Origin: a virus
Lineage: Duplodnaviria > Heunggongvirae > Uroviricota > Caudoviricetes
Virus record (IMG/VR): IMGVR_UViG_2713896901_000003
Span: 1 to 9,599 of that record
DNA length: 9,599 bases
Direction: 5' to 3' (one strand)
Position numbers and translations under genes: made by a program. The stretch's first letter is position 1, and every line of letters starts with the position of its first letter. Shown one piece after another: positions 1 through 9,599 of this stretch. The notes under the pieces were generated by a model. That model worked only from the letters and a program-made list of their open reading frames with translations. It searched no databases and was not told the DNA's origin.

Positions 1-24
1 AATTTCAAAGGTTAGTTTTTTCAT
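1..24 (-). CDS. ninB: 5' end of a ninB-like gene; partial, continues past the window start
   Basis: The reverse complement of 1-24 reads ATGAAAAAACTAACCTTTGAAATT, which translates to MKKLTFEI. From memory this matches the N-terminus of lambda/P22 NinB. Only 8 codons fall inside the window. Confidence 0.4.
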
Positions 25-40
25 GACTTCCCTCTCCCCC

Positions 41-72
41 AAATAAAAAGGCCTGCGATTACCAGCAGGCCT
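41..72 (-). terminator. Rho-independent terminator in the tR2 position, between the ren-slot ORF and ninB
   Basis: A perfect 8-bp stem, AGGCCTGC (49-56) pairing with GCAGGCCT (65-72), encloses an 8-nt loop. On the minus strand it is followed by TTTTATTT, the complement of 41-48. It lies 25 nt downstream of the stop of the 98..367 ORF. Confidence 0.7.
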
Positions 73-97
73 GTTATTAGCTCAGTGATGTAGATGG

Positions 98-367
98 TCA
101 TTGCTTCATCTCACTTTCCATTTCATCAATGTCAACGTCATCAGGAAGGTGGGAGCAATACGCCGCTATACCATGATGATTTATCTCATACCCTTTAAAC
201 GTTACCATCTGGCGCGTAATCTCAACTTCGTTCAGGAATCCGCCATCGCATAACTGCCTGGCTATTTTCGATTTGGTCTGGATTATTGGTAGTGCCTGTT
301 CTTTCAAAGCGTATGATATTTGTGCATCCCATGCCTTTTCGAGAATGGCTAATTGTTTTTTATTCAT
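98..367 (-). CDS. Hypothetical 89-aa protein in the ren/nin slot downstream of the helicase
   Basis: Intact ORF. Its start overlaps the helicase stop (ATGA overlap at 364-367). It sits in the operon position that ren occupies in lambda. I do not recognise the protein. Confidence 0.6.
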   Translation of the reverse strand: MNKKQLAILEKAWDAQISYALKEQALPIIQTKSKIARQLCDGGFLNEVEITRQMVTFKGYEINHHGIAAYCSHLPDDVDIDEMESEMKQ

Positions 368-1803
368 CAGAATCCTCCTTTCTTCTTGGACTGCGGTTCC
401 TCGCGTTCACGGCGGCGCATTTCAGCAGACTGTTGGTCTGTGTCATAAATAGCGCCATTTGCCTGAATGCAATACACCGTGCCGGTATTGCCATGACGAT
501 TGAGACGAAGGATTAGTTCGGTTTCACCAGGTGGAACACTGTCATCAAAAGCACCTTCACGATGGATCCCCACCCAATAATCGCAATCCTGTTCAATCTG
601 CCCTGTATCTCGGGAGTCACTTGGTAATGGGCGTTTATTGGTTCGGCTTTCCAGTGCGCGGTTAAGCTGTGTCAGAAGCACAACAACGCAATCAAGCTCT
701 TTGGCAAGGTTCTTCAGTCCTTTGGTGATCATGCCGTAGGCAAGGTCGTTACGATCGGCCTTTTCAGCGGTCATTAGTGTCAGGTAATCGACAAGAATCA
801 TGCCAACGCATCCTTTTTCTCGTTTGATTCGACGGCTTTCGCTGACGATTTGAGCCAAAGATAATCCCGGCGTGTCGTCGATGTAAAGCAGGTCGATTTC
901 ACTCAAGCGATTGGCTGTTTCTATCGCCCTGTTGAAGTCACCATCGTAATCACCCTGATAGCCGTCATCAGCGTCATTTGTCGCCGGAAGGTAAAAAATA
1001 TTCGGGTTAACACCTGACTTCTGCCCTACCAGTTTTTCCAGTATCTGGTCACTTGGCATTTCAAGGCTGAACATCAGAGCGGGCTTTTTCTCATGCACTG
1101 CGCAGTTGATTGCCATCTGGCTGTATAGCGTCGTTTTCCCCATCTTAGGGCGAGCGCCAATGACAAACAGAGAGCCTTTCACCAGACCTTTCGGTGACAG
1201 CATCCTGTCCAGCGATGGGATCCCTGTGCTCATTCCTCGTTGTTCGCCTGACGGGTCAAATCGCTTCTCAAGGTCGCTAACCCAGTCTTCCATGACCTCA
1301 CCAAATGAGCGAAGGCCGCGACGCGATCCGGTTTTTGCATGGTCTGTCAGTTGCGTGAAAATCGCCTGAATAGCTTCGTACTTCTGCGTCGCAGTCATTC
1401 CGTTGCGGGAATAGAGCAATTCCGTCGCTTCAGTCATGCGGTTGATGGCGTAGCGTTCCATTGCGGTTTCGCGAACCTGCATTGCATAGGCAACGATGTT
1501 TGCGGCGCTTGGCGTGTTCTTTGCGATCTCAGCGATATAAGCAAAACCGCCAACAGACGCCGTTAACGATTTACGCTCCAGTTCATCGAAAAGCGTCAGG
1601 CCATCTACTGGCTTTTGCTCCCGGTGCATTCTGATTATTTCTTCGAAAAGGATTTTGTGTGGTCGGCTGTAAAATGAATCAGGCTTCAGCATCGCCAGAA
1701 CTTTCTGGACGCGCTCACTGCTGTCATCATCCAGAAGCAATCCACCAATCACCGCCTGCTCTGCCTCGATGCTATGGGGCGGCGCATAAAAATTATCGGT
1801 CAT
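367..1803 (-). CDS. Phage-encoded DnaB-family replicative DNA helicase (P22 gene 12 type)
   Basis: The N-terminus carries the DnaB-typical motif HSIEAEQAVIGGLLLD. A Walker A motif GARPKMGKTT and a DYLTLM motif are present. Length is about 478 aa. The ORF track begins at a GTG (1818). The ATG at 1801-1803 has a GAGGG ribosome-binding site 7 nt upstream and overlaps the O-like stop, giving ATGACCGATAA. Confidence 0.9.
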   Translation of the reverse strand: MTDNFYAPPHSIEAEQAVIGGLLLDDDSSERVQKVLAMLKPDSFYSRPHKILFEEIIRMHREQKPVDGLTLFDELERKSLTASVGGFAYIAEIAKNTPSAANIVAYAMQVRETAMERYAINRMTEATELLYSRNGMTATQKYEAIQAIFTQLTDHAKTGSRRGLRSFGEVMEDWVSDLEKRFDPSGEQRGMSTGIPSLDRMLSPKGLVKGSLFVIGARPKMGKTTLYSQMAINCAVHEKKPALMFSLEMPSDQILEKLVGQKSGVNPNIFYLPATNDADDGYQGDYDGDFNRAIETANRLSEIDLLYIDDTPGLSLAQIVSESRRIKREKGCVGMILVDYLTLMTAEKADRNDLAYGMITKGLKNLAKELDCVVVLLTQLNRALESRTNKRPLPSDSRDTGQIEQDCDYWVGIHREGAFDDSVPPGETELILRLNRHGNTGTVYCIQANGAIYDTDQQSAEMRRREREEPQSKKKGGF

Positions 1804-2692
1804 CGTGTTCACCCTCACGAACTTTCAGGTAGGTATTATCGTTAAGCAGGAAATCAAATCCCTTTTTGTGCCAGACAGTTCCGCGTTGATGGTTTGGGCG
1901 CTCTTCGAACATCCATCGGCAATTTTCGCCTACGTAGCTCAAATAATTTCTCCAGTCCTGCATCGAGAACCCATGCCCGTCAAGCTGGCGGGTTATAACT
2001 CCGGCTTTGCGCCAGAACGTTCGGATCTGGTTTTTACGCTTGTCATTCAGTGCGCGGATTCTTGGCGCTTCAGGAAGGATTTCGTGGTAAGCATCGACAA
2101 CATCCTGACAGCTGACGGAAGGTTTTTTCTTGTCAGACTTTTTGTCTGCTGTGGCACTCTCTAATACGTCAGTATTAGAGATAATATTATTATATTCTTT
2201 ATCTGTGGTAATTTGCTGGTAATCTGCTGGTACTGTATTGCTTACAGGCATTGGTATTGCTGGCTTTGAGGTGGTAATTTGCTGGTAATCTGCTGGTACA
2301 AAATTTGACTGATAATCGTCATATTTCTCTACCGAGAAAACTGAGAATTTACCGTGTGAAACCCAGTCAATCATGCCGAGTTTTTTGAACTTTCTAAGCA
2401 GGTACTGAACGCGATCTGGTTTGAGTCCTGTTTCAAACGCCAGAGAGTTTCTACCGCCAAGTAGCTTCCCTCTGCCTACCAGAATTTCTCCTGCGTCAGT
2501 CATTACATACTCAGGCGTATGCTTTGCTTTGAGGATTAAGTGAACCCACAGATGCGCTGCTTCTGCGTCCTTGTAAAACGGCACATCCATAATTTTACGG
2601 TGCAGCAAGGCATACCCCTTACCGCTGCTTTGATGCGGTCGTTGTAGCCTTCTGGCCTCTCTGGCTTCGGCTAGATTAGATATGTTACTCAT
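1793..2692 (-). CDS. Replication initiation protein with lambda-O-like function, carrying ori iterons in its coding sequence (resembles P22 gene 18 type)
   Basis: 299-aa ORF immediately upstream of the helicase and translationally coupled to it. It contains an internal direct DNA repeat that encodes the duplicated peptide [10 protein letters not shown]. This is the same arrangement as the lambda ori, which lies inside the O gene. The N-terminus resembles phage replisome-organiser proteins. Confidence 0.8.
2165..2299. repeat. Putative origin of replication: iterons plus an adjacent AT-rich tract inside the O-like gene
   Basis: A perfect 29-bp direct repeat, GTGGTAATTTGCTGGTAATCTGCTGGTAC, occurs at 2205-2233 and again at 2271-2299. 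Each copy holds two GCTGGTA(A/C) iteron cores, and a fifth core, TTGCTGGC, lies between the copies. The flanking tract 2165-2204 (AGAGATAATATTATTATATTCTTTATC) is AT-rich and lies downstream in the O reading direction, as in lambda ori. Confidence 0.65.
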
Positions 2693-2831
2693 GACCTTTC
2701 TCCTTCTGCATCAGCTTCACTTTTTCCAACTCAGCCCGGAATCGACCAGGCTGCTTGAAGCTGGACAGGAAGCGATCACGTAGTATGTGTTTGTGAATTT
2801 TGTCCTGGTAAGGACTGAGTTGTTTTGTCAT
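2685..2831 (-). CDS. Small basic 48-aa ORF between cII and the O-like gene, absent from the ORF track
   Basis: Sequence [48 protein letters not shown]. Its ribosome-binding site and start, AGGAGTAATTATGACAAA, match the lambda O translation start as I recall it. The ORF ends with TAA overlapping the ATG of the O-like gene (GGTCATGAGTAA), which implies translational coupling. Confidence 0.45.
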
Positions 2832-2842
2832 AATTACTCCTG

Positions 2843-2920
2843 TGGATTGATCCAGTAATGACCTCAGAATTCCATCTGGATTTGTTCAGAACGCTCGGTC
2901 TTGCACACCGGGCGTTTTTT
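2843..2920 (+). ncRNA. oop: OOP-like antisense RNA, complementary to the 3' end of cII, with its own intrinsic terminator
   Basis: Plus strand 2843-2920 reads GTGGATTGATCCAGTAATGACCTCAGAATTCCATCTGGATTTGTTCAGAACGCTCGG, followed by a terminator stem CGCTCGGT (2892-2899) pairing with ACCGGGCG (2907-2914) and TTTTTTCTTT (2915-2924). This closely parallels lambda OOP RNA as I recall it. A candidate -10 element, CATAAT, lies at 2829-2834. Confidence 0.6.
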
Positions 2921-3163
2921 CTTTGTGATTCCATCAAGCGCATACTTAAAAGCCCTGCTAATTGGACTGATGTCTGATGCCATTCCGAAAGCACACAAGA
3001 CCGAAGCAATAAACCGCCAGTCCGTTCTGCTTATCTTCGATTCATGACAGCCAATCATCTTTGCCAGACCACGCTGGGTAAGCGTTGACAGGTTGATGAG
3101 TAAATCTGTTTCTGCGCGATCAACGTCACGCTGTGATAGTTTGCTGTAACTTGTTTGTTCCAT
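2864..3163 (-). CDS. cII: CII transcriptional activator, the lysogeny establishment regulator
   Basis: 99 aa. The C-terminus [19 protein letters not shown] matches lambda CII ([17 protein letters not shown]) and the HTH region KSQISR-like motif is present. It sits between cro and O, as in lambda. Confidence 0.9.
3141..3154 (+). promoter_or_regulatory. Putative CII-binding direct repeat, TTGC-N6-TTGT, at a pRE-like promoter directed toward cI
   Basis: TTGC (3141-3144), TGTAAC, TTGT (3151-3154) lie within the first codons of cII. The spacing to the cII start codon (CAT at 3161-3163) is the same as lambda TTGC-N6-TTGC at pRE. There is one mismatch in the second repeat. Confidence 0.4.
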
Positions 3164-3190
3164 TTCTTATGATTTCCAATAGTGAATATT

Positions 3191-3216
3191 ACGCATCTGT
3201 TGATGCGTTTTTTGTG
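3191..3216 (+). terminator. Intrinsic-terminator-like hairpin oriented on the plus strand between cII and cro
   Basis: Stem ACGCATC (3191-3197), loop TGTT, stem GATGCGT (3202-3208), then TTTTT, GTG. On the minus strand the 3' flank is AATATT, which is not a good terminator. Confidence 0.4.
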
Positions 3217-3253
3217 GGGACGAATCATCCCCGACCTGATTGTTTAAAGAGCG
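3216..3253 (-). promoter_or_regulatory. nutR: boxA plus a boxB hairpin immediately downstream of cro
   Basis: The minus strand reads CGCTCTTTAAACA (boxA; 3241-3253), then ATCAGGTC, then GGGGATGATTCGTCCCC (boxB hairpin; 3216-3232). The identical 17-nt boxB recurs on the plus strand at 4948-4964. Confidence 0.7.
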
Positions 3254-3260
3254 GTGTTAC

Positions 3261-3485
3261 TTATGCTGCCTGATTCGGTTTTGGAAACAGGTGTGGCAAA
3301 TCGGGGCGAATTTCGTAAGCCTTGATCTGCCCTCCAGTGGCGTTAACGATGGCGGTAACTTTCTCTGGAGAGACCAACCCGCCTTTCAGCCATTTGTGTA
3401 CTGCTGGCTGCGTTACACCACACTTGTCGGCAAGGCGCTTTTGGCTACCGACAATTTTCAAGGCTCGTTGAATTACTAAATTCAT
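3261..3485 (-). CDS. cro: Cro-like repressor with a small HTH
   Basis: About 74 aa, MNLVIQRALKIVGSQKRLADKCGVTQPAVHKWLKGG..., divergent from cI across the operator region. The ORF track starts at 3506, but that first ATG lies about 1 nt from the predicted pR +1 and has no ribosome-binding site. The ATG at 3483-3485 is preceded by AAGAGGT with proper spacing. Confidence 0.8.
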   Translation of the reverse strand: MNLVIQRALKIVGSQKRLADKCGVTQPAVHKWLKGGLVSPEKVTAIVNATGGQIKAYEIRPDLPHLFPKPNQAA

Positions 3486-3518
3486 GAGCATACCTCTTGT
3501 GGTCATTACTTATAACCA

Positions 3519-3584
3519 AAGATAACTCAAGTTATAAAAAATAGCAATAACCTTTGTTATTTTACTTTGGATAACCGTAGTTAT
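3519..3584. promoter_or_regulatory. oR/pR/pRM immunity control region with three 14-bp operators
   Basis: Three operators: ATAACTCAAGTTAT (3522-3535), ATAACCTTTGTTAT (3547-3560) and ATAACCGTAGTTAT (3571-3584). Centre-to-centre spacings are 25 and 24 bp. pR on the minus strand has -35 TTGCTA (3542-3547), 17 nt of spacer, and -10 TATCTT (3519-3524). A candidate pRM -10, TATAGA (3582-3587), precedes a leaderless cI ATG at 3597. Confidence 0.7.
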
Positions 3585-3596
3585 AGATTTGTGGGT

Positions 3597-4304
3597 ATGA
3601 AAACATTCGCAGAAAGACTAAATGCAGCCATGAGCTCAGCAGGTGTGTCGCAATCACAGCTTGCTGACATGGTTGGAATATCTCAGCCAGCCATACAGAA
3701 GATGTCATCCGGTAAAACAAACGGATCTCGCAAGATGGTTGAATTAGCCAATGCTTTAAAAGTACGCCCTGAATGGCTTAGCTCTGGTATTGGTGAAATG
3801 AGGGATGGTACACATGAAGAACCATCCAATGTCCGTGAATCATCTTTAAAAGCTGTGGTATGGGAAGATATTAAAAGAAACGATGACGAGTTTGTCGCGT
3901 TGCCTCTTCTTAACGTTTCGCTTTCAGCTGGAAACGGTAGCTGCGAGCTAGAGGAATCATCAGAGTTCTCTTTGGTTTTCAGAAAGTACTATCTGAAAAA
4001 GATGGGGGTATCTGAAAGATCAGCCAAGCTAGTTAGGGTTGTAGGGCAAAGCATGGAACCAACGCTTCACGACGGAGATGTTGTTGGTGTTAACACACAA
4101 GATACCACAATCAGAGATGGTAAAACCTACGCTATTTGCCAGTCTGATTTGTTACGAGTAAAAACATTAATCGCCACCCCTACATCGGTGATAATCAGAT
4201 CAATAAATCGCGAAGAGTACCCAGATGAAGTAATGGATAGAGATGAATTTCATGAAACCGTAAGGATTATTGGCAGAGTATTCTGGTCGTCTCATAGTTG
4301 GTAA
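3597..4304 (+). CDS. cI: CI-type prophage repressor: N-terminal HTH, C-terminal S24 LexA-like autopeptidase
   Basis: HTH segment QSQLADMVGISQPAIQKM. Candidate Ala-Gly cleavage site in SLSAGNG. Catalytic Ser in GQSMEPT and Lys in LLRVKTL. The ORF track begins at a TTG (3567) that lies inside OR3. The ATG at 3597 gives a 235-aa leaderless product, as for lambda cI transcribed from pRM. Confidence 0.9.
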   Translation: MKTFAERLNAAMSSAGVSQSQLADMVGISQPAIQKMSSGKTNGSRKMVELANALKVRPEWLSSGIGEMRDGTHEEPSNVRESSLKAVVWEDIKRNDDEFVALPLLNVSLSAGNGSCELEESSEFSLVFRKYYLKKMGVSERSAKLVRVVGQSMEPTLHDGDVVGVNTQDTTIRDGKTYAICQSDLLRVKTLIATPTSVIIRSINREEYPDEVMDRDEFHETVRIIGRVFWSSHSW

Positions 4305-4344
4305 CCGATAATCAGAAGAAGACTTACGGAAGTGCGGAGGGATA

Positions 4345-4641
4345 ATGGAATTTCTGATAGTTTTTGTTGTTGTTTTGGTCATCATTCTTTTTGTTTTGCT
4401 AAGCATTAGCAAAAAGCTATCTCAAATGATTGAACATAGCTCTAATCGCGCAAAAGAAGAAGACCATCTAATTGATATAAAAGAGATTCTCTCTGATATA
4501 AAAATCACATTAGATGAAATAAAATACACAACAGATCTAATTGAACAGTATAAAATACCAACCCCAAACGAAAGAAAAGCAATAGATCAATATCGTATTG
4601 ACTTAGAAATCGACGAAATGCTAAGCAAAAGAAAAGACTAA
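4345..4641 (+). CDS. AT-rich moron encoding a 98-aa bitopic membrane protein: N-terminal TM anchor plus an acidic helical tail. It occupies the rexAB or lysogenic-conversion slot downstream of cI.
   Basis: Strong ribosome-binding site, GGAGGGATAATG. Residues 3-22, FLIVFVVVLVIILFVLLSIS, form a TM helix, followed by KK and a helical tail rich in charged residues. GC content is about 30 %, against about 50 % for the flanks. The gene is 40 nt downstream of cI with no terminator between them, and is followed by a tImm-like terminator. Confidence 0.7.
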   Translation: MEFLIVFVVVLVIILFVLLSISKKLSQMIEHSSNRAKEEDHLIDIKEILSDIKITLDEIKYTTDLIEQYKIPTPNERKAIDQYRIDLEIDEMLSKRKD

Positions 4642-4645
4642 AAAC

Positions 4646-4674
4646 ACCCGGCCTCAGCGCCGGGTTTTCTTTTC
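4646..4674 (+). terminator. tImm-like intrinsic terminator ending the cI-moron transcript; the hairpin is bidirectional
   Basis: Stem CCCGGC (4647-4652), loop CTCAGC, stem GCCGGG (4659-4664), then TTTTCTTTTCC. On the minus strand the same stem is followed by TGTTTTTAG. Confidence 0.8.
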
Positions 4675-4813
4675 CTGCCGTCCCCCACCCAATCAACCAT
4701 CCTCATCATAGACAAGCATCAAGCCAAAGGTAGCACTTTCACCCCGCACGCAAGCCCTCAAACACCAATCAATCAGCAACATTTACAAAAATAAAATACC
4801 TTTGTTATCCATC

Positions 4814-4880
4814 ACTTATAACTTATTTACCATAAAATATAAACTAAGTTATTGACCACACCTATAACCTAAGTTATCTT
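4814..4880 (+). promoter_or_regulatory. oL/pL: early-left promoter with operators
   Basis: -35 TTGACC (4852-4857), 17-nt spacer, -10 TATCTT (4875-4880). OL1 ATAACCTAAGTTAT (4864-4877) lies between the -35 and -10 elements. OL2 ATAAACTAAGTTAT (4839-4852) is centred 25 bp upstream. A degenerate third site lies near 4814-4831. Confidence 0.65.
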
Positions 4881-4926
4881 TAAGCCATCAGCAGGACGCA
4901 GGAAGCCAAACGGAACAGATTGGCAG

Positions 4927-4964
4927 GCTCTTTAACATTGATGGAATGGGGATGATTCGTCCCC
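4927..4964 (+). promoter_or_regulatory. nutL: boxA-like element plus a boxB hairpin
   Basis: GCTCTTTAACA (4927-4937), then TTGATGGAAT, then GGGGATGATTCGTCCCC (4948-4964). The boxB 17-mer is identical to that of nutR. Confidence 0.7.
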
Positions 4965-5119
4965 ACCAAAGAGAGGTTGGCTTTGGGATTTGATGAATGT
5001 GCAGGTCGATGCACTAACGCTTAGCGGTGAGCACCTGCCTTTGGGGCAGGATGGGTAGCCGCAATCAGGAGATCGACACCTGACATCAAATCACCAAAGT
5101 CAATCATCGGAGGTATCCA

Positions 5120-5326
5120 GTGAAAGCAAGAGAGATTCGCAAACTCGAACGCGCTCGTAAGCACAAAGAGGCGACAGCAAAACGTAAAAATATTGACCGT
5201 GTTTCAATGGTGGTTTCGCTAGCAGGAGCGAATAGGAAGAAGGTTGAATGTGGTTCGTGCTGCCTGCCAAACGTAGCTCTTTACGCAGCAGGCTACCGGA
5301 AATCAAAACAACTGACAGCAAGATGA
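5120..5326 (+). CDS. N: Short 68-aa N-like transcription antiterminator
   Basis: It is the first gene downstream of pL and nutL. It uses a GTG start with a GGAGGT ribosome-binding site. The N-terminus MKAREIRKLERARKHKEATAKRKN is an arginine-rich motif. From memory, the C-terminus CLPNVALYAAGYRKSKQLTAR matches the C-terminus of the N proteins of the H-19B/933W phage group. Confidence 0.6.
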   Translation: MKAREIRKLERARKHKEATAKRKNIDRVSMVVSLAGANRKKVECGSCCLPNVALYAAGYRKSKQLTAR

Positions 5327-5387
5327 CTTGTGTTGGTCGCCAGAAAATGAAATTAGGCAGCAAACCACTTATTTGAGAGGAATTAAT

Positions 5388-6011
5388 ATGTCATCAATCC
5401 GCTTAACTACGAGAATGAAAGAGGAAATCGCTCGTAACGCTTTAATTAAGTCTGGGGTTTTCACTGAACTTGAAGAAGTAACAAAGTTAAAGAACCAGCT
5501 TGCACTTGACGCCAGAGTTATTGCGTTTGGCGGAAAAAAGAAAACTGAGGAAGTGGACAAGCTGGCATCAAACTTAATGGCTATAAGTGAAGAACTTCAA
5601 AAGGTGGGATGTTCATTTTACTCATGCGATGTTCGTTCTACATCAATTTATCTGACTGTATCTGGCAGAAGGGTGGGATGGCATTCATATGGGAAAGACG
5701 GCAACGGTGAAGATATATTGCTTCCCACCCCAGAAAAAGATAAATGCATGTTTGATGCAGAACACGAAATAACAAAAAGGTTTGATGAAATCTGCGCATT
5801 GCAACAAAAACTTGAATCCAGGAAAAAGGATATCGAATCAAATGTATGGGCTGCTTTGAACTCAGTCACAACAGTTAAGCGACTTATTGAAGTTTGGCCT
5901 GAAAGCAAAGAATTGCTACCAAAAGAAGCAGATAAAGCAAGTGCAGCACTTCCTGCTTTACGGGTAGAAGATTTGAATAAGATGATTGGACTTCCTTCCG
6001 AGGCCGCATAA
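5388..6011 (+). CDS. Hypothetical 207-aa protein: moron A, non-lambda, in the N-cIII accessory slot
   Basis: Ribosome-binding site AGAGGAATTAATATG. No TM segment. About 38 % GC. The gene is immediately followed by its own intrinsic terminator. I do not recognise the protein. It occupies the position of lambda sieB/ral. Confidence 0.7.
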   Translation: MSSIRLTTRMKEEIARNALIKSGVFTELEEVTKLKNQLALDARVIAFGGKKKTEEVDKLASNLMAISEELQKVGCSFYSCDVRSTSIYLTVSGRRVGWHSYGKDGNGEDILLPTPEKDKCMFDAEHEITKRFDEICALQQKLESRKKDIESNVWAALNSVTTVKRLIEVWPESKELLPKEADKASAALPALRVEDLNKMIGLPSEAA

Positions 6012-6028
6012 TCGGCCTTTATTTTTGG
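6001..6028 (+). terminator. Intrinsic terminator overlapping the moron A stop codon
   Basis: Stem AGGCCG (6001-6006), loop CATAAT (containing the TAA stop), stem CGGCCT (6013-6018), then TTATTTTTGG. Confidence 0.7.
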
Positions 6029-6074
6029 CATAAACAACAGAATAAACACTGCACTGAATTATTTGAGGTTAGAT

Positions 6075-6545
6075 ATGACAAAATCATGGAGCGTACCTTT
6101 TCCTGAATCAGAAACTGAACATGAGGGAATGCCTGTTTTCTGGAGATTCCAGGCGACAGTTGAAGAAGATGGAATCAAAATATTCGCACTTCAATATATA
6201 GCTTTTCATCAGACAGAGCATTATGCATGGTTGGTTCCTGCGCATTGGATTGTTAATTTTAAACCAGCACCAAATCAGTGGTTACAGGAATGGAAACAAA
6301 GGAGAAATAGATATGCAATTAAGAAAGTAGCAAAAAATGCAGAAAGATCTTTTGCATTCCCAACGAAGAAACTTGCCATTGAAAGTTTATTGCGCCGGAA
6401 GAAATACCATTTAATGAGAATCAAACAAGATTTGGCTGTTGTATCAACTCTTGTTGATGGGATGAAGAATATTGATACATCAACACCAGATATTGAATAT
6501 AACTTTGGACACAACCAAGAAACAGAAAATTGGGTGTTTTATTAG
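6075..6545 (+). CDS. Hypothetical 156-aa Trp-rich protein: moron B, non-lambda
   Basis: Ribosome-binding site GAGGT 5 nt before the ATG at 6075. The ORF track uses a TTG at 6063. Seven Trp residues and a basic central region, KQRRNRYAIKKVAKNAERS. I do not recognise the protein. Confidence 0.65.
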   Translation: MTKSWSVPFPESETEHEGMPVFWRFQATVEEDGIKIFALQYIAFHQTEHYAWLVPAHWIVNFKPAPNQWLQEWKQRRNRYAIKKVAKNAERSFAFPTKKLAIESLLRRKKYHLMRIKQDLAVVSTLVDGMKNIDTSTPDIEYNFGHNQETENWVFY

Positions 6546-6649
6546 TACGAATAAGCACTGTGTATTCATTCCAACGAGTGAATACACGGAGCAATGTCGC
6601 TCGTAACTAAACAGGAGCCGACTTGTTCTGATTATTGGAAATCTTCTTT

Positions 6650-6676
6650 GCCCTCTAATGTGAGGGCGATTTTTTA
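6650..6676 (+). terminator. Intrinsic terminator between moron B and the ea10-like gene
   Basis: Stem GCCCTC (6650-6655), loop TAATGT, stem GAGGGC (6662-6667), then GATTTTTTAT. Confidence 0.65.
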
Positions 6677-6695
6677 TCTATGAGGATATGAATAG

Positions 6696-7064
6696 ATGTC
6701 AAACATCAAAAAATACATCATTGATTGCGACTGGAAAGCATCAATAGAAATTGAAATCGACCATGACGTAATGACAGAGGAAAAACTTCACCAGATTAAT
6801 AATTTCTGGTCAGACTCTGAATACCGACTCAATAAACACGGCTCTGTATTAAATGCTGTATTAATCATGCTGGCGCAACATGCTCTGCTTATAGCAATTT
6901 CAAGCGACTTAAATGCATATGGTGTTGTGTGTGAGTTCGACTGGAATGATGGAAATGGTCAGGAAGGATGGCCTCCAATGGATGGTAGCGAAGGAATAAG
7001 AATTACCGATATCGATACATCAGGAATATTTGATTCAGATGATATGACTATCAAAGCCGCCTGA
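6696..7064 (+). CDS. ea10: Highly acidic 122-aa protein in the lambda ea10 position, immediately upstream of cIII
   Basis: The length (369 nt, 122 aa) and the position relative to the lambda-identical cIII, kil and gam genes both match lambda ea10. The protein has a net charge of about -20. The assignment rests on position and size, not on recalled sequence. Confidence 0.55.
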   Translation: MSNIKKYIIDCDWKASIEIEIDHDVMTEEKLHQINNFWSDSEYRLNKHGSVLNAVLIMLAQHALLIAISSDLNAYGVVCEFDWNDGNGQEGWPPMDGSEGIRITDIDTSGIFDSDDMTIKAA

Positions 7065-7088
7065 GCGCTGCGTTACCGCATACCAATA

Positions 7089-7115
7089 ACGCTTCACTCG
7101 AGGCGTTTTTCGTTA
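7089..7115 (+). terminator. Terminator-like hairpin upstream of cIII, in the lambda tL2/tL3 region
   Basis: Stem ACGCTTC (7089-7095), loop ACTC, stem GAGGCGT (7100-7106) with one G-U pair, then TTTTCGTT. Confidence 0.4.
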
Positions 7116-7136
7116 TGTATAAATAAGGAGCACACC

Positions 7137-7301
7137 ATGCAATATGCCATTGCAGGGTGGCCTGTTGCTGGCTGCCCTTCCGAATCTTTACTTGAACGAA
7201 TCACCCGTAAATTACGTGACGGATGGAAACGCCTTATCGACATACTTAATCAGCCAGGAGTCCCAAAAAATGGATCAAACACTTATGGCTATCCAGACTA
7301 A
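7137..7301 (+). CDS. cIII: CIII, the FtsH inhibitor that stabilises CII
   Basis: Translates to [54 protein letters not shown], which is identical to lambda CIII by recollection. Ribosome-binding site AAGGAG. Confidence 0.9.
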   Translation: MQYAIAGWPVAGCPSESLLERITRKLRDGWKRLIDILNQPGVPKNGSNTYGYPD

Positions 7302-7413
7302 ATTCACTATCGCCACTTTTATTGGCGATGAAAAGATGTTTCGTGAGGCCGTCGACGCTTATAAAAAATGGATATTAATACTGAAACTGAGATCAAGCAA
7401 AAGCATTCACTAA
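7270..7413 (+). CDS. kil: Kil, the host-killing and FtsZ-inhibiting peptide
   Basis: [47 protein letters not shown] matches lambda Kil (47 aa). It overlaps the cIII 3' end and the gam 5' end, as in lambda. The ORF track entry 7144..7413 is the same frame extended spuriously upstream. Confidence 0.85.
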
Positions 7414-7784
7414 CCCACTTCCCTGTTTTCCTAATCAGCCCGGCATTTCGCGGGCGATATTTTCACAGCTATTTCAGGAGTTCAGCCATGAACGCTTATT
7501 ACATTCAGGATCGTCTTGAGGCTCAGAGCTGGACGCGTCACTACCAGCAGATCGCCCGTGAAGAGAAAGAGGCAGAACTGGCAGACGACATGGAAAAAGG
7601 CCTGCCCCAGCACCTGTTTGAATCGCTATGCATCGATCATTTGCAACGCCACGGGGCCAGCAAAAAAGCCATTACCCGTGCGTTTGATGACGATGTTGAG
7701 TTTCAGGAGCGCATGGCAGAACACATCCGGTACATGGTTGAAACCATTGCTCACCATCAGGTTGATATTGATTCAGAGGTATAA
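7368..7784 (+). CDS. gam: Gam, the RecBCD inhibitor
   Basis: 138-aa long form, identical or near-identical to lambda Gam. The functional short form GamS starts at the ATG at 7488-7490, which is preceded by an AGGAG ribosome-binding site. Confidence 0.9.
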
Positions 7785-7789
7785 AACGG

Positions 7790-8575
7790 ATGAGTACAGC
7801 ACTCGCAACGCTGGCAGGGAAGCTGGCTGAACGTGTCGGCATGGATTCTGTCGACCCACAGGAACTGATCACCACTCTTCGCCAGACGGCATTTAAAGGT
7901 GATGCCAGCGATGCGCAGTTCATCGCATTGCTGATCGTCGCCAACCAGTACGGCCTTAATCCGTGGACGAAAGAAATTTACGCCTTCCCTGACAAGCAGA
8001 ACGGCATCGTTCCGGTGGTGGGCGTTGATGGCTGGTCCCGCATCATCAATGAAAACCAGCAGTTTGATGGCATGGACTTTGAGCAGGACAATGAATCCTG
8101 TACATGCCGGATTTACCGCAAAGACCGTAATCATCCGATCTGCGTTACCGAATGGATGGATGAATGCCGCCGCGAACCATTCAAAACCCGCGAAGGCAGA
8201 GAAATCACCGGACCGTGGCAGTCGCATCCCAAACGGATGTTACGGCATAAAGCCATGATTCAGTGTGCCCGTCTGGCCTTCGGATTTGCTGGTATCTATG
8301 ACAAGGATGAAGCCGAGCGCATTGTCGAAAATACCGCATACACTGCAGAACGTCAGCCGGAACGCGACATCACTCCGGTTAACGATGAAACCATGCAGGA
8401 GATTAACACTCTGCTGATTGCCCTGGACAAAACATGGGATGACGACTTATTGCCGCTCTGTTCCCAGATATTTCGCCGCGACATTCGCGCATCGTCAGAA
8501 CTGACACAGGCCGAAGCAGTGAAAGCTCTTGGATTCCTGAAACAGAAAGCCTCTGAACAGAAGGTGGCTGCATGA
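7790..8575 (+). CDS. bet: Bet, the Red-beta single-strand annealing protein
   Basis: 261 aa, [72 protein letters not shown]..., lambda Bet by recollection. Confidence 0.95.
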
Positions 8576-9252
8576 CACCGGACATTATCCTGCAGCGTAC
8601 CGGGATCGACGTGAGAGCTGTCGAACAGGGGGATGATGCGTGGCACAAATTACGGCTCGGCGTCATTACAGCTTCAGAAGTTCACAACGTGATAGCAAAA
8701 CCCCGATCCGGAAAGAAATGGCCTGACATGAAAATGTCCTACTTCCACACCCTGCTTGCTGAGGTTTGCACCGGTGTGGCTCCGGAAGTTAATGCTAAGG
8801 CGCTGGCCTGGGGAAAACAGTACGAGAACGACGCCAGAACCCTGTTTGAATTCACTTCCGGCGTGAATGTTACTGAATCCCCGATCATCTATCGCGACGA
8901 AAGTATGCGCACCGCCTGCTCTCCCGATGGTTTATGCAGTGACGGCAATGGCCTTGAGCTGAAATGCCCGTTTACCTCCCGGGATTTCATGAAGTTCCGG
9001 CTCGGTGGTTTCGAGGCCATAAAGTCGGCTTACATGGCCCAGGTGCAGTACAGCATGTGGGTGACGCGAAAAGATGCCTGGTACTTTGCCAACTATGACC
9101 CGCGAATGAAGCGTGAAGGCCTGCATTATGTCGTGGTTGAGCGGGATGAAAAGTACATAGCGAGTTTTGACGAGATGGTGCCGGAGTTCATCGAAAAAAT
9201 GGACGAGGCACTAGCTGAAATTGGTTTTGTATTTGGGGAGCAATGGCGATGA
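8572..9252 (+). CDS. exo: Exo, the Red-alpha 5'-3' exonuclease
   Basis: 226 aa, [43 protein letters not shown]..., lambda Exo. It overlaps the bet stop through an ATGA overlap. Confidence 0.95.
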
Positions 9253-9431
9253 AGCATCCTCACGATAATATCCGGGTAGGCGCGATAACTTTCGTCTACT
9301 CCGTTACAAAGCGAGGCTGGGTATTTCCCGGCCTTTCTGTTATCCGAAATCCACTGAAAGCACAGCGGCTGGCTGAAGAGATAAATAATAAACGAGGGAC
9401 TGTATGCACAAAGCATCTCCTGTTGAATTAA
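9243..9431 (+). CDS. Lambda orf61-like small protein
   Basis: 62 aa, [52 protein letters not shown]..., in the position immediately after exo, as for lambda orf61. Confidence 0.65.
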
Positions 9432-9595
9432 GAACGAGTATCGGGATGGCACATAGCCTCGCTCAAATTGGAGTCAGGTTTGTGCCAATACCAGTAGAAA
9501 CAGACGAAGAATTTCATACGTTAGCCACATCCCTTTCACAAAAGCTGGAAATGATGGCGGCGAAAGCAGAAGCAAACGAGAGAGACCCGGCATGA
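9404..9595 (+). CDS. Lambda orf63-like small protein
   Basis: 63 aa, [41 protein letters not shown]..., in the position of lambda orf63. A further ATG at 9592 (ATGACAAC) begins the next small ORF, orf60a-like, which is cut by the window end. Confidence 0.65.
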   Translation: MHKASPVELRTSIGMAHSLAQIGVRFVPIPVETDEEFHTLATSLSQKLEMMAAKAEANERDPA

Positions 9596-9599
9596 CAAC

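Follow-up and report, generated by a model that had tools for sequence, protein, structure and literature searches.

The interval between the antiterminator gene N and the ea10-like gene in a 9,599-nucleotide (nt) stretch of Caudoviricetes virus DNA (IMG/VR record IMGVR_UViG_2713896901_000003, positions 1 to 9,599; this whole stretch is called the window below) holds two accessory cassettes of the lambdoid pL operon, each independent and with a single gene, and a piece of lambda backbone. We call the two genes A and B. A and B each move independently and would not form a two-component system. The window itself covers the immunity and early genes of a lambdoid phage, with the leftward (pL) operon written on the + strand. 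Both genes are already present in databases, at about 94% (A) and about 99% (B) identity, in characterized phages. An earlier sequence-only reading of this DNA had presented A and B as two unrecognized moron genes that might be a defense or anti-defense module; its observations are largely accurate, while its interpretation is only partly right. We assign a probability of about 0.6 to our reading as a whole, in which the cassettes are independent accessory elements expressed in line from pL, A is a binder and B is a nucleic-acid binder.

Distribution of the two genes

Among 5426 complete Escherichia coli genomes, A was identified in 211/5426, B in 598/5426 and the A-B tandem in 48/5426; about 77% of the A-carrying and about 92% of the B-carrying genomes are without the tandem. 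Phages HK97 and 933W have the gene order N, B, terminator and then cIII or ea10, with no A, and the order in mEp235 is N, Nun, A and cIII, with no B. Comparing gene content at the N junction in related phages shows that A and B move independently and not as the pair that had been proposed: they are found singly in HK97, 933W, mEp235 and most E. coli genomes with either gene. The tandem was seen in two prophage backbones, one of a bet/exo type (strain 95NR1) and one of an erf/abc2 type (strain ZH063, ST131 group).

Other genera give the same picture of separate movement. An A-type gene of the Nmad5 family is the first or second open reading frame (ORF) after the repressor gene in 5/5 loci (Providencia, Serratia, two in Klebsiella, and Pantoea). 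Of three B loci, those of Pectobacterium and Brenneria have the gene beside xis-int, and that of Cronobacter has it after N. The partner gene was absent in all eight of these sampled loci, five with A and three with B.

Boundaries of the cassettes

Joints were located by pairwise blastn and local alignment and read against the lambda sequence; the alignments break at 5377/6059 and 6056/6554 (Table 1). A relic of the C-terminus of a lambda-type N (MTCVGRQKMKLGSKPLI*, 5322-5376) lies in another frame just past the stop codon of the window N. This relic (..GRQK.K..S.PLI*) ends in CTTATTTGA, and the alignments to HK97, 933W and mEp235 break at the left junction that it forms. Lambda homology stops at the N stop relic and resumes 5 nt past the stop codon of ral, which ends at 34087 in lambda, so that A fills the slot of sieB, orf28 and ral exactly, replacing lambda 34083-35036. 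The lambda sieB-orf28-ral block has the same chromosomal boundaries as the A cassette but no sequence similarity to it, and lambda sieB is annotated on the opposite strand.

The earlier statement that both genes replace sieB and ral is borne out by this alignment for A, while B is an add-on insertion. B was inserted in the post-ral sequence at ..GCACTG|TGTATTC.. and is flanked by GAATAAACACTG and GAATAAGCACTG. The insertion brings a second TTATTTGAG(G), an N-stop relic that doubles as a ribosome-binding site. TTATTTGAG is found at both left joints (direct repeat D13) and GAATAA(A/G)CACTG at both joints of B.

Comparison with individual phages is consistent with this layout. Gene mEp235_037 of mEp235 is equal in length to A with 94% amino acid (aa) identity, and its flanks are the same as in the window: the N relic precedes it, and the post-ral sequence with its hairpin and terminator follows. 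In contrast to the window, the A-type gene of mEp235 comes after Nun and is directly followed by the hairpin/PreS backbone (described below), with no B. HK97 gp45, 933W ST933Wp19 and the H-19B ORF cover all 156 aa of B and are followed by the same hairpin-PreS-tL2a sequence; in these three phages the gene comes directly after N, whereas in the window cassette A and its terminator are interposed.

Table 1. Features of the window and their counterparts in lambda and other phages.
Feature	Position	Strand	Description
Replication genes (DnaB-like, O-like), cII, cro		-	
cI	3567-4304	+	
N antiterminator, 68 aa	5120-5326	+	Pfam N_peptide, E 2.7e-16; upstream neighbor of A
3' end of HK97/933W-type N	5261-5377		Contains relic of lambda N C-terminus in another frame
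Left junction TTATTTGAG	5369-5377	+	Relic stop region (..PLI*) of lambda-type N; exact repeat at 6059-6067
Cassette A-specific sequence	5378-6013		Shared with mEp235
Gene A, 207 aa, Nmad5	5388-6011	+	PF18757, PHROG 1965
Intrinsic terminator of A cassette	6000-6028	+	7-bp G+C-rich stem (6000-6019) plus UUUAUUUUU; TATTTTT tract; overlaps A stop codon
43-bp lambda stretch	6014-6056	+	Lambda 34082-34040, 42/43 identical; begins after a 4-nt gap, 5 nt past ral stop
Cassette B-specific sequence	6057-6554		Shared with HK97 and 933W
Second TTATTTGAG copy	6059-6067	+	Left junction of B cassette; carries GAGG ribosome-binding site of B
Gene B, 156 aa, PHROG 1636	6075-6545	+	HK97 gp45 / 933W ST933Wp19 / H-19B ORF
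Lambda sequence from 34045 leftwards	6555-9599		97.5% identity
Conserved hairpin	6555-6592	+	Stem about 14 bp; lambda 34045-34008; immediately 5' of the 88-nt PreS form
PreS/LPR1 homologue	6588-6675	+	86/88 nt identical to lambda, no gaps; ends approximate, from published length and poly-U
tL2a terminator	6648-6676	+	Lambda about 33952-33925; 8-bp stem (6648-6669) plus T6; 3' end of PreS
ea10-like gene (DUF2528)	6696-7064	+	Pfam DUF2528, E 1.5e-47; lambda-like coding sequence resumes here
cIII leader, gam, bet, exo	Downstream of ea10	+	

Families and possible functions of A and B

The sequence-only reading could not assign either ORF to any family, yet A is a full-length member of the Pfam family Nmad5 and B belongs to PHROG 1636 and is the same gene as HK97 gp45. 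The position, 207-aa length and good ribosome-binding site given for A all agree with our analysis; A starts with ATG, with GAGAGG 8-9 nt upstream. A matches Nmad5 (PF18757) with an E-value of 2.2e-70 and 237.4 bits against a gathering cut-off of 27. The match is end-to-end, with residues 4-203 aligned to profile positions 1-206 of 206. A also matches PHROG 1965, and RefSeq/PGAP already names this gene "Nmad5 family putative nucleotide modification protein". PF18757 is carried by all 73 A homologues found. Full-length homologues with 43-79% identity are present in Cronobacter, Klebsiella, Serratia, Providencia and Pantoea. In an alignment of 25 sequences the C-terminal core of the family is kept in A (AALNSVTT-KRLIE-WPE ... 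LPAL-V-DLN--IGLP). Invariant positions include A155, S159, V160, T162, L166, W170, P171, E172, E175, P189, L196, N197 and P203; the invariant residues are mostly hydrophobic or structural, and no catalytic motif could be recognized in the alignment. Distant phage members of the family align to A only over residues 107 or 121 through 207.

Structure prediction and a Foldseek search, proposed earlier as a check on A, returned a confident helical model and no match beyond Nmad5 among viral models. The model (predicted local distance difference test score 83, predicted template modeling score 0.67) has three long N-terminal helices, a beta-hairpin at 86-100, a 30-residue helix at 127-158 and a small conserved helical region followed by a flexible LPAL-VEDLNKMIGLP tail. 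As modeled, A would be a helical bundle without an enzyme-like fold. Foldseek of the model against viral models returned only other Nmad5 proteins, and the A profile matched nothing below E 0.2 among the sequences of solved structures. No NCBIfam or PADLOC match was found for A, nor any Ral or SieB family match in a Pfam scan at E up to 1.

B is likewise a known gene. Its position, good ribosome-binding site and tryptophan richness (7 of 156 residues, 4.5%) were described correctly, whereas its length is 156 and not 155 aa; B starts with ATG, with GAGG 7 nt upstream. The match to PHROG 1636 spans the whole profile (positions 1-156 of 156) with an E-value of 7.3e-112. Identity is 98.7% with HK97 gp45 and 99.4% with the 933W ORF, the H-19B ORF falling within 98.7-99.4%. 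Unnamed B-type ORFs lie downstream of N in 933W, H-19B, BP-4795, Min27, phi24B and many other Shiga-toxin phages, and full-length homologues with 54-84% identity are present in Pectobacterium, Brenneria, Cronobacter and Rosenbergiella. An exhaustive profile search places 87 representatives in the B family, mostly of about 140 aa and without annotation. Distant relatives of about 140 aa are found in phage early or recombination regions, where they adjoin an AAA_24 gene and Lar.

Searches for a named relative of B were negative. B has no Pfam or NCBIfam family, and its best PADLOC match is only E 0.018 (Cas1_II, 45 residues). No Ral or SieB family match was found in a Pfam scan at E up to 1, and scanning 47 B relatives individually against Pfam gave three isolated chance hits only. 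A word-indexed profile search with a divergent B alignment found no named or Pfam-annotated relative, and sequences of solved structures compared with profiles of B, and of B with its distant relatives, all gave E > 0.2. In the literature we found no functional study of the B family or HK97 gp45, nor any under the accessions of A and B or their PHROG and Pfam identifiers. B is basic (pI 9.07) and has a basic helix with invariant R107, K109 and R115. B would most likely bind nucleic acids as a small basic protein.

The Nmad5 family was reportedly defined by Iyer et al. in 2013, and its name rests on gene neighborhood. In the YuA/M6-like phages (Aergia/SN1 members), an Nmad5 gene abuts a homologue of deoxyuridine monophosphate (dUMP) hydroxymethylase in a thymidine-hypermodification cluster. 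In the N4-like phage Pollock it lies between thymidylate synthase and exonuclease, and the neighbors of lytic-phage Nmad5 genes are a thymidylate-synthase homologue, DNA polymerase and exonuclease. YuA-like Pseudomonas phages seem to carry two Nmad5 paralogues. The first is beside a thymidylate-synthase homologue (phage Aergia, locus L006, 4998-5558), and the second, gp15-like, matches the C-terminal core only, with 40-44% identity (AM749441.1, about 13920-14180).

A distant family member has been tied to a defense system by genetics. In Dhillonvirus, a single substitution in nmad5, K216E or K296E, lets the phage escape Tmn defense (PMC11846954). In the same study, deletion of nmad5 gave no Tmn escape and left sensitivity unchanged, and the gene could not be cloned and was apparently toxic; the escape loci are PhiSMS22 CDS6 and PhiSMA8 CDS7. 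The Nmad5 protein of phage Ioannina (locus L007, 3527-4288) shares 34% identity with A residues 107-203, and through this alignment the escape position K216 would map to the conserved K164-R165 of A. The Dhillonvirus proteins share the C-terminal core with A, but they are longer and have different N-termini. Their gene is embedded in the head-gene cluster of a virulent siphovirus and encoded on the opposite strand, while A lies in the pL operon. Together, the paralogue beside a thymidylate-synthase homologue and the head-cluster site in Dhillonvirus indicate that Nmad5 has at least two genomic niches.

Fold, gene neighborhood and genetics together lead us to the hypothesis that A most likely has no catalytic activity and would act as a helical adaptor or binding protein from the first moments of infection. 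Its target is probably the DNA replication or nucleotide-metabolism machinery, or a host defense watching that machinery. One could go further and regard A as a non-enzymatic immediate-early binder or decoy of an immune sensor or replication factor, Nmad5 being a misnamed, widespread counter-defense or defense-trigger family, with B separately a new nucleic-acid-binding factor for host takeover or anti-defense. The decoy reading draws on the position of A, first in the early operon across genera, and on the distant homologue that controls Tmn escape. We consider this extended reading possible but rather doubtful. An anti-defense role for either gene would be a plausible and reasonable guess; for A the guess is prompted by a position close to the promoter and by the genetic link between a distant Nmad5 homologue and Tmn escape.

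The names given to the family and by PGAP suggest instead that A truly modifies nucleotides or DNA as an enzyme, altering the DNA of phage or host so that restriction is evaded and standing in functionally for Ral. The distant members in or beside thymidine-hypermodification and thymidylate-synthase clusters of YuA/M6-like and N4-like phages would fit such an enzyme, as would the place of A in the slot of ral, a restriction-alleviation gene. The character of the invariant residues argues against it, and so does the unchanged Tmn sensitivity of the Dhillonvirus deletion mutant. Moreover, we found no gene for a thymidylate-synthase homologue or dUMP hydroxymethylase, a kinase, a radical S-adenosylmethionine protein or a pyridoxal phosphate-dependent partner in the window or in the loci of mEp235, 95NR1, ZH063, Providencia, Serratia, Klebsiella and Pantoea. 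A is probably not a DNA-modifying enzyme, and we regard the enzymatic explanation as improbable.

Lambda backbone downstream of B

Two elements beyond the stop codon of B had been attributed to this gene, a strong inverted repeat of 9 to 11 bp and a terminator about 105 nt downstream. Both are present, and the repeat forms a longer stem than had been described (Table 1). Neither is a feature of B; they are lambda backbone, located after ral in lambda itself, after A in mEp235, and after B in HK97 and 933W. The supposed terminator of the second gene is lambda tL2a, the 3' end of PreS/LPR1.

LPR1/PreS is an Hfq-bound small RNA of lambda encoded between ral and ea10 (bioRxiv 10.1101/2024.10.31.621285). 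According to the same study it is about 88 nt long and processed to about 68 nt, and its 3' end, a G+C-rich hairpin with poly-U, is the early-left terminator tL2a. It is a product of the lytic cycle that is not made in lysogens, activates dnaN and represses alaS in lambda, and is kept at ≥92% identity in 2,537 genomes. The study counts a sequence as conserved at 92% identity or more with no more than 3 gaps; the homologous region of the window, upstream of ea10, has 86/88 nt identical to lambda and no gaps, and both of its mismatches are in the terminator loop. Over the 146 nt of 6555-6700, the window differs from lambda 34045-33900 at 4 positions, these two included. In lambda ral is upstream of the PreS/LPR1 region, while the putative homologue in the window has B upstream and the two terminator-loop substitutions. 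PreS is kept no matter which cassette precedes it, consistent with a role in the backbone.

The tL2a hairpin is predicted at -14.2 kcal/mol (z -5.2), and the HK97 annotation has a putative terminator at the same site. The conserved hairpin that precedes PreS is stronger still (-21.7 kcal/mol, z -5.1, 0/200 shuffles) and is kept in lambda, HK97, 933W and mEp235. We found no description of this hairpin, which could be a processing element or one that defines the 5' end of PreS. A scan of the whole window with Rfam, which has no model for PreS, returned only the cIII thermoregulator (Lambda_thermo, 7124-7182, 88.5 bits, E 4.5e-21). Ahead of the cIII leader, after the end of ea10, is a hairpin that resembles a terminator (7088-7107). 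In the ZH063 prophage with the A-B-PreS-ea10 block, an extra hypothetical gene of 322 aa is found between ea10 and cIII (locus L013, 7276-8244); the gap between ea10 and cIII is another variable slot of the same operon.

Probable transcription from pL

A consensus scan of the + strand for promoters found only 4852-4880 (TTGACC-17-TATCTT, likely pL) and 5080-5107. No sigma-70-like site was detected on the + strand in 5108-7400, a consensus scan that weak promoters would escape. Between the pL candidate and N, we read by eye a consensus boxA (GCTCTTTAACA, rrn-type) at 4927-4937 and a boxB-like hairpin (GGGGA-TGATTCG-TCCCC) at 4948-4964. Together these look like a nutL site, and the annotated nutL of mEp235 aligns with the boxA region. 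Terminator-like sites in 4300-7400 number 5, compared to 2.0 +/- 1.4 in shuffled sequences; those on the + strand are only at 4646, 6000, 6648 and 7088, with none between 4666 and 6000.

A and B would be transcribed from pL in line with N, with no promoter-like site of their own. The A hairpin is the first terminator-like site downstream of the pL candidate, and A is therefore predicted to be immediate-early with N, before antitermination. In the lambda pL operon tL1 acts as the first stop, and the A hairpin may be its counterpart here as the first stop on the pL transcript. B, PreS and ea10 would then be delayed-early and need N-dependent read-through of the A terminator. The hairpin terminator said to overlap the A stop codon is present, though its stability is modest, as discussed below. 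Its 5' arm is formed by the last codons of A, GAGGCCGCATAA, and its 3' arm and T-tract by the conserved post-ral sequence GGCCTTTATTTTT. Lambda, with ral upstream at the same spot, has no stable hairpin there (-6 kcal/mol, z 0.28).

The positions given earlier for N and the ea10-like gene agree with our Pfam scan. N starts with GTG behind a GGAGG ribosome-binding site. N_peptide aligns to its C-terminal half only (profile positions 44-100), and the last 48 aa share 60% identity with HK97 N, while the Lys/Arg-rich N-terminus matches nothing. No phage record covers ≥80% of the window N protein. This N could be either a new, short antiterminator or a hybrid that is defective.

These results also bear on the term moron, which Juhala et al. 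in 2000 are said to have defined as an insert with its own transcription, placed between two genes that are neighbors in related phages. Both genes are insertions with clean joints, A being absent from HK97 and 933W and B from mEp235 and lambda. Neither has a promoter of its own by consensus scan, and no promoter-like site was found between N and ea10. A has a terminator whose 5' arm comes from its coding end, and after B there is only the backbone tL2a/PreS. In the strict sense of a promoter and a terminator, A would have half of what defines a moron and B has neither; they are in-line pL genes instead, and the earlier label is not supported in that sense.

A further possibility is that A or B is expressed in the lysogen as a superinfection-exclusion or defense moron, stands in functionally for sieB and shields the host from other phages. 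Defense genes account for many of the accessory genes close to the immunity region in lambdoid phages, the slot holds sieB in lambda, and the low G+C content of both genes and the terminator of A would suit such a role. Both genes were correctly noted as low in G+C and located in the pL early operon, although the range of 37-38% given for them was inexact. A has 40.4% and B 36.3%, compared to 45.3% for the whole window and 52.4% for bet-exo; ea10, a gene of the backbone, is low as well (38.8%). The exclusion explanation is unlikely in view of the lack of a promoter-like site before A or B, the absence of a significant PADLOC model match, and the lytic-cycle transcription of the PreS region in lambda, which is silent in lysogens (bioRxiv 10.1101/2024.10.31.621285). 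In addition, reading of the sequences revealed no hydrophobic segment in A or B, unlike a 98-aa protein encoded in the rex slot.

This 98-aa ORF occupies the rexAB slot downstream of cI (4345-4641, + strand, 30% G+C) and belongs to PHROG 18389. The protein has a hydrophobic start, MEFLIVFVVVLVIILFVLLSI, and its gene is followed by a bidirectional G+C-rich terminator at 4646-4665. NCBIfam and PADLOC scans of this ORF and of ea10 gave nothing significant. If expressed with cI, the rex-slot ORF would be a better candidate for lysogen exclusion or defense than A or B.

Independent cassettes or a paired module

Several observations count against our reading of two in-line cassettes encoding binding proteins. 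The 48 tandems observed are about twice the roughly 23 expected by chance; many of the genomes are related ST131-type strains, and the excess may be clonal. Our scans for terminators and promoters rely on consensus patterns and are blind to Rho-dependent terminators and weak promoters. The hairpin of the A terminator has a predicted energy of -11 kcal/mol and a z of -1.7, with 13/200 shuffles folding equally well. N has 68 aa and no full-length phage match; if it does not work, read-through into B becomes uncertain. A non-enzymatic role of A is argued from a missing fold match, which is weak negative evidence, and the curated family name is still "putative nucleotide modification". Finally, the correspondence of K216 to R165 of A, in the near-invariant TT-KR-LIEVWPE motif, assumes that Ioannina is numbered like PhiSMA8.

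The earlier reading raised the possibility that A and B are one two-gene anti-defense or defense module; their products would then work jointly, like a toxin-antitoxin or sensor-effector pair. The genes are adjacent, on the same strand, 63 nt apart and both low in G+C, they sit where lambda has ral and sieB, and the same tandem recurs in the 95NR1 and ZH063 backbones somewhat above random co-occurrence. A module is nevertheless difficult to reconcile with the occurrence of each gene alone in the viable and well-studied phages HK97, 933W, H-19B and mEp235, and with the predominance of E. coli genomes that have one gene and no tandem. Elsewhere A is promoter-proximal and B is beside xis-int in 2/3 loci, with the partner missing throughout. 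In the window itself a terminator separates A from B and each has its own joints, and PADLOC gave no significant match (best E 0.018). We consider a paired module very unlikely.

The weakest alternative, that one or both ORFs arose by chance as non-coding ORFs in an AT-rich region with many overlapping ORFs on the opposite strand, is ruled out in practice by cross-genus conservation, with full-length homologues of 43-84% identity across Enterobacterales genera, dozens of invariant residues, end-to-end Pfam and PHROG matches and good ribosome-binding sites.

Implications

The interpretation as independent cassettes removes a false lead, in that the interval is not an unrecognized two-gene module with its own terminators. 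It shows exactly where the mosaic joints of this ral/sieB slot lie and identifies the conserved element downstream as the PreS small RNA with tL2a. An Nmad5 gene upstream of the first pL terminator is predicted to be co-produced with N, its product being a binder and not an enzyme. The earlier finding gives no specific evidence that either of these lambdoid accessory genes serves in defense or anti-defense. Both genes are common in E. coli, their carriers including ST131 prophages and, among the Shiga-toxin phages, 933W, and a functional assignment of A or B would annotate many genomes at once.

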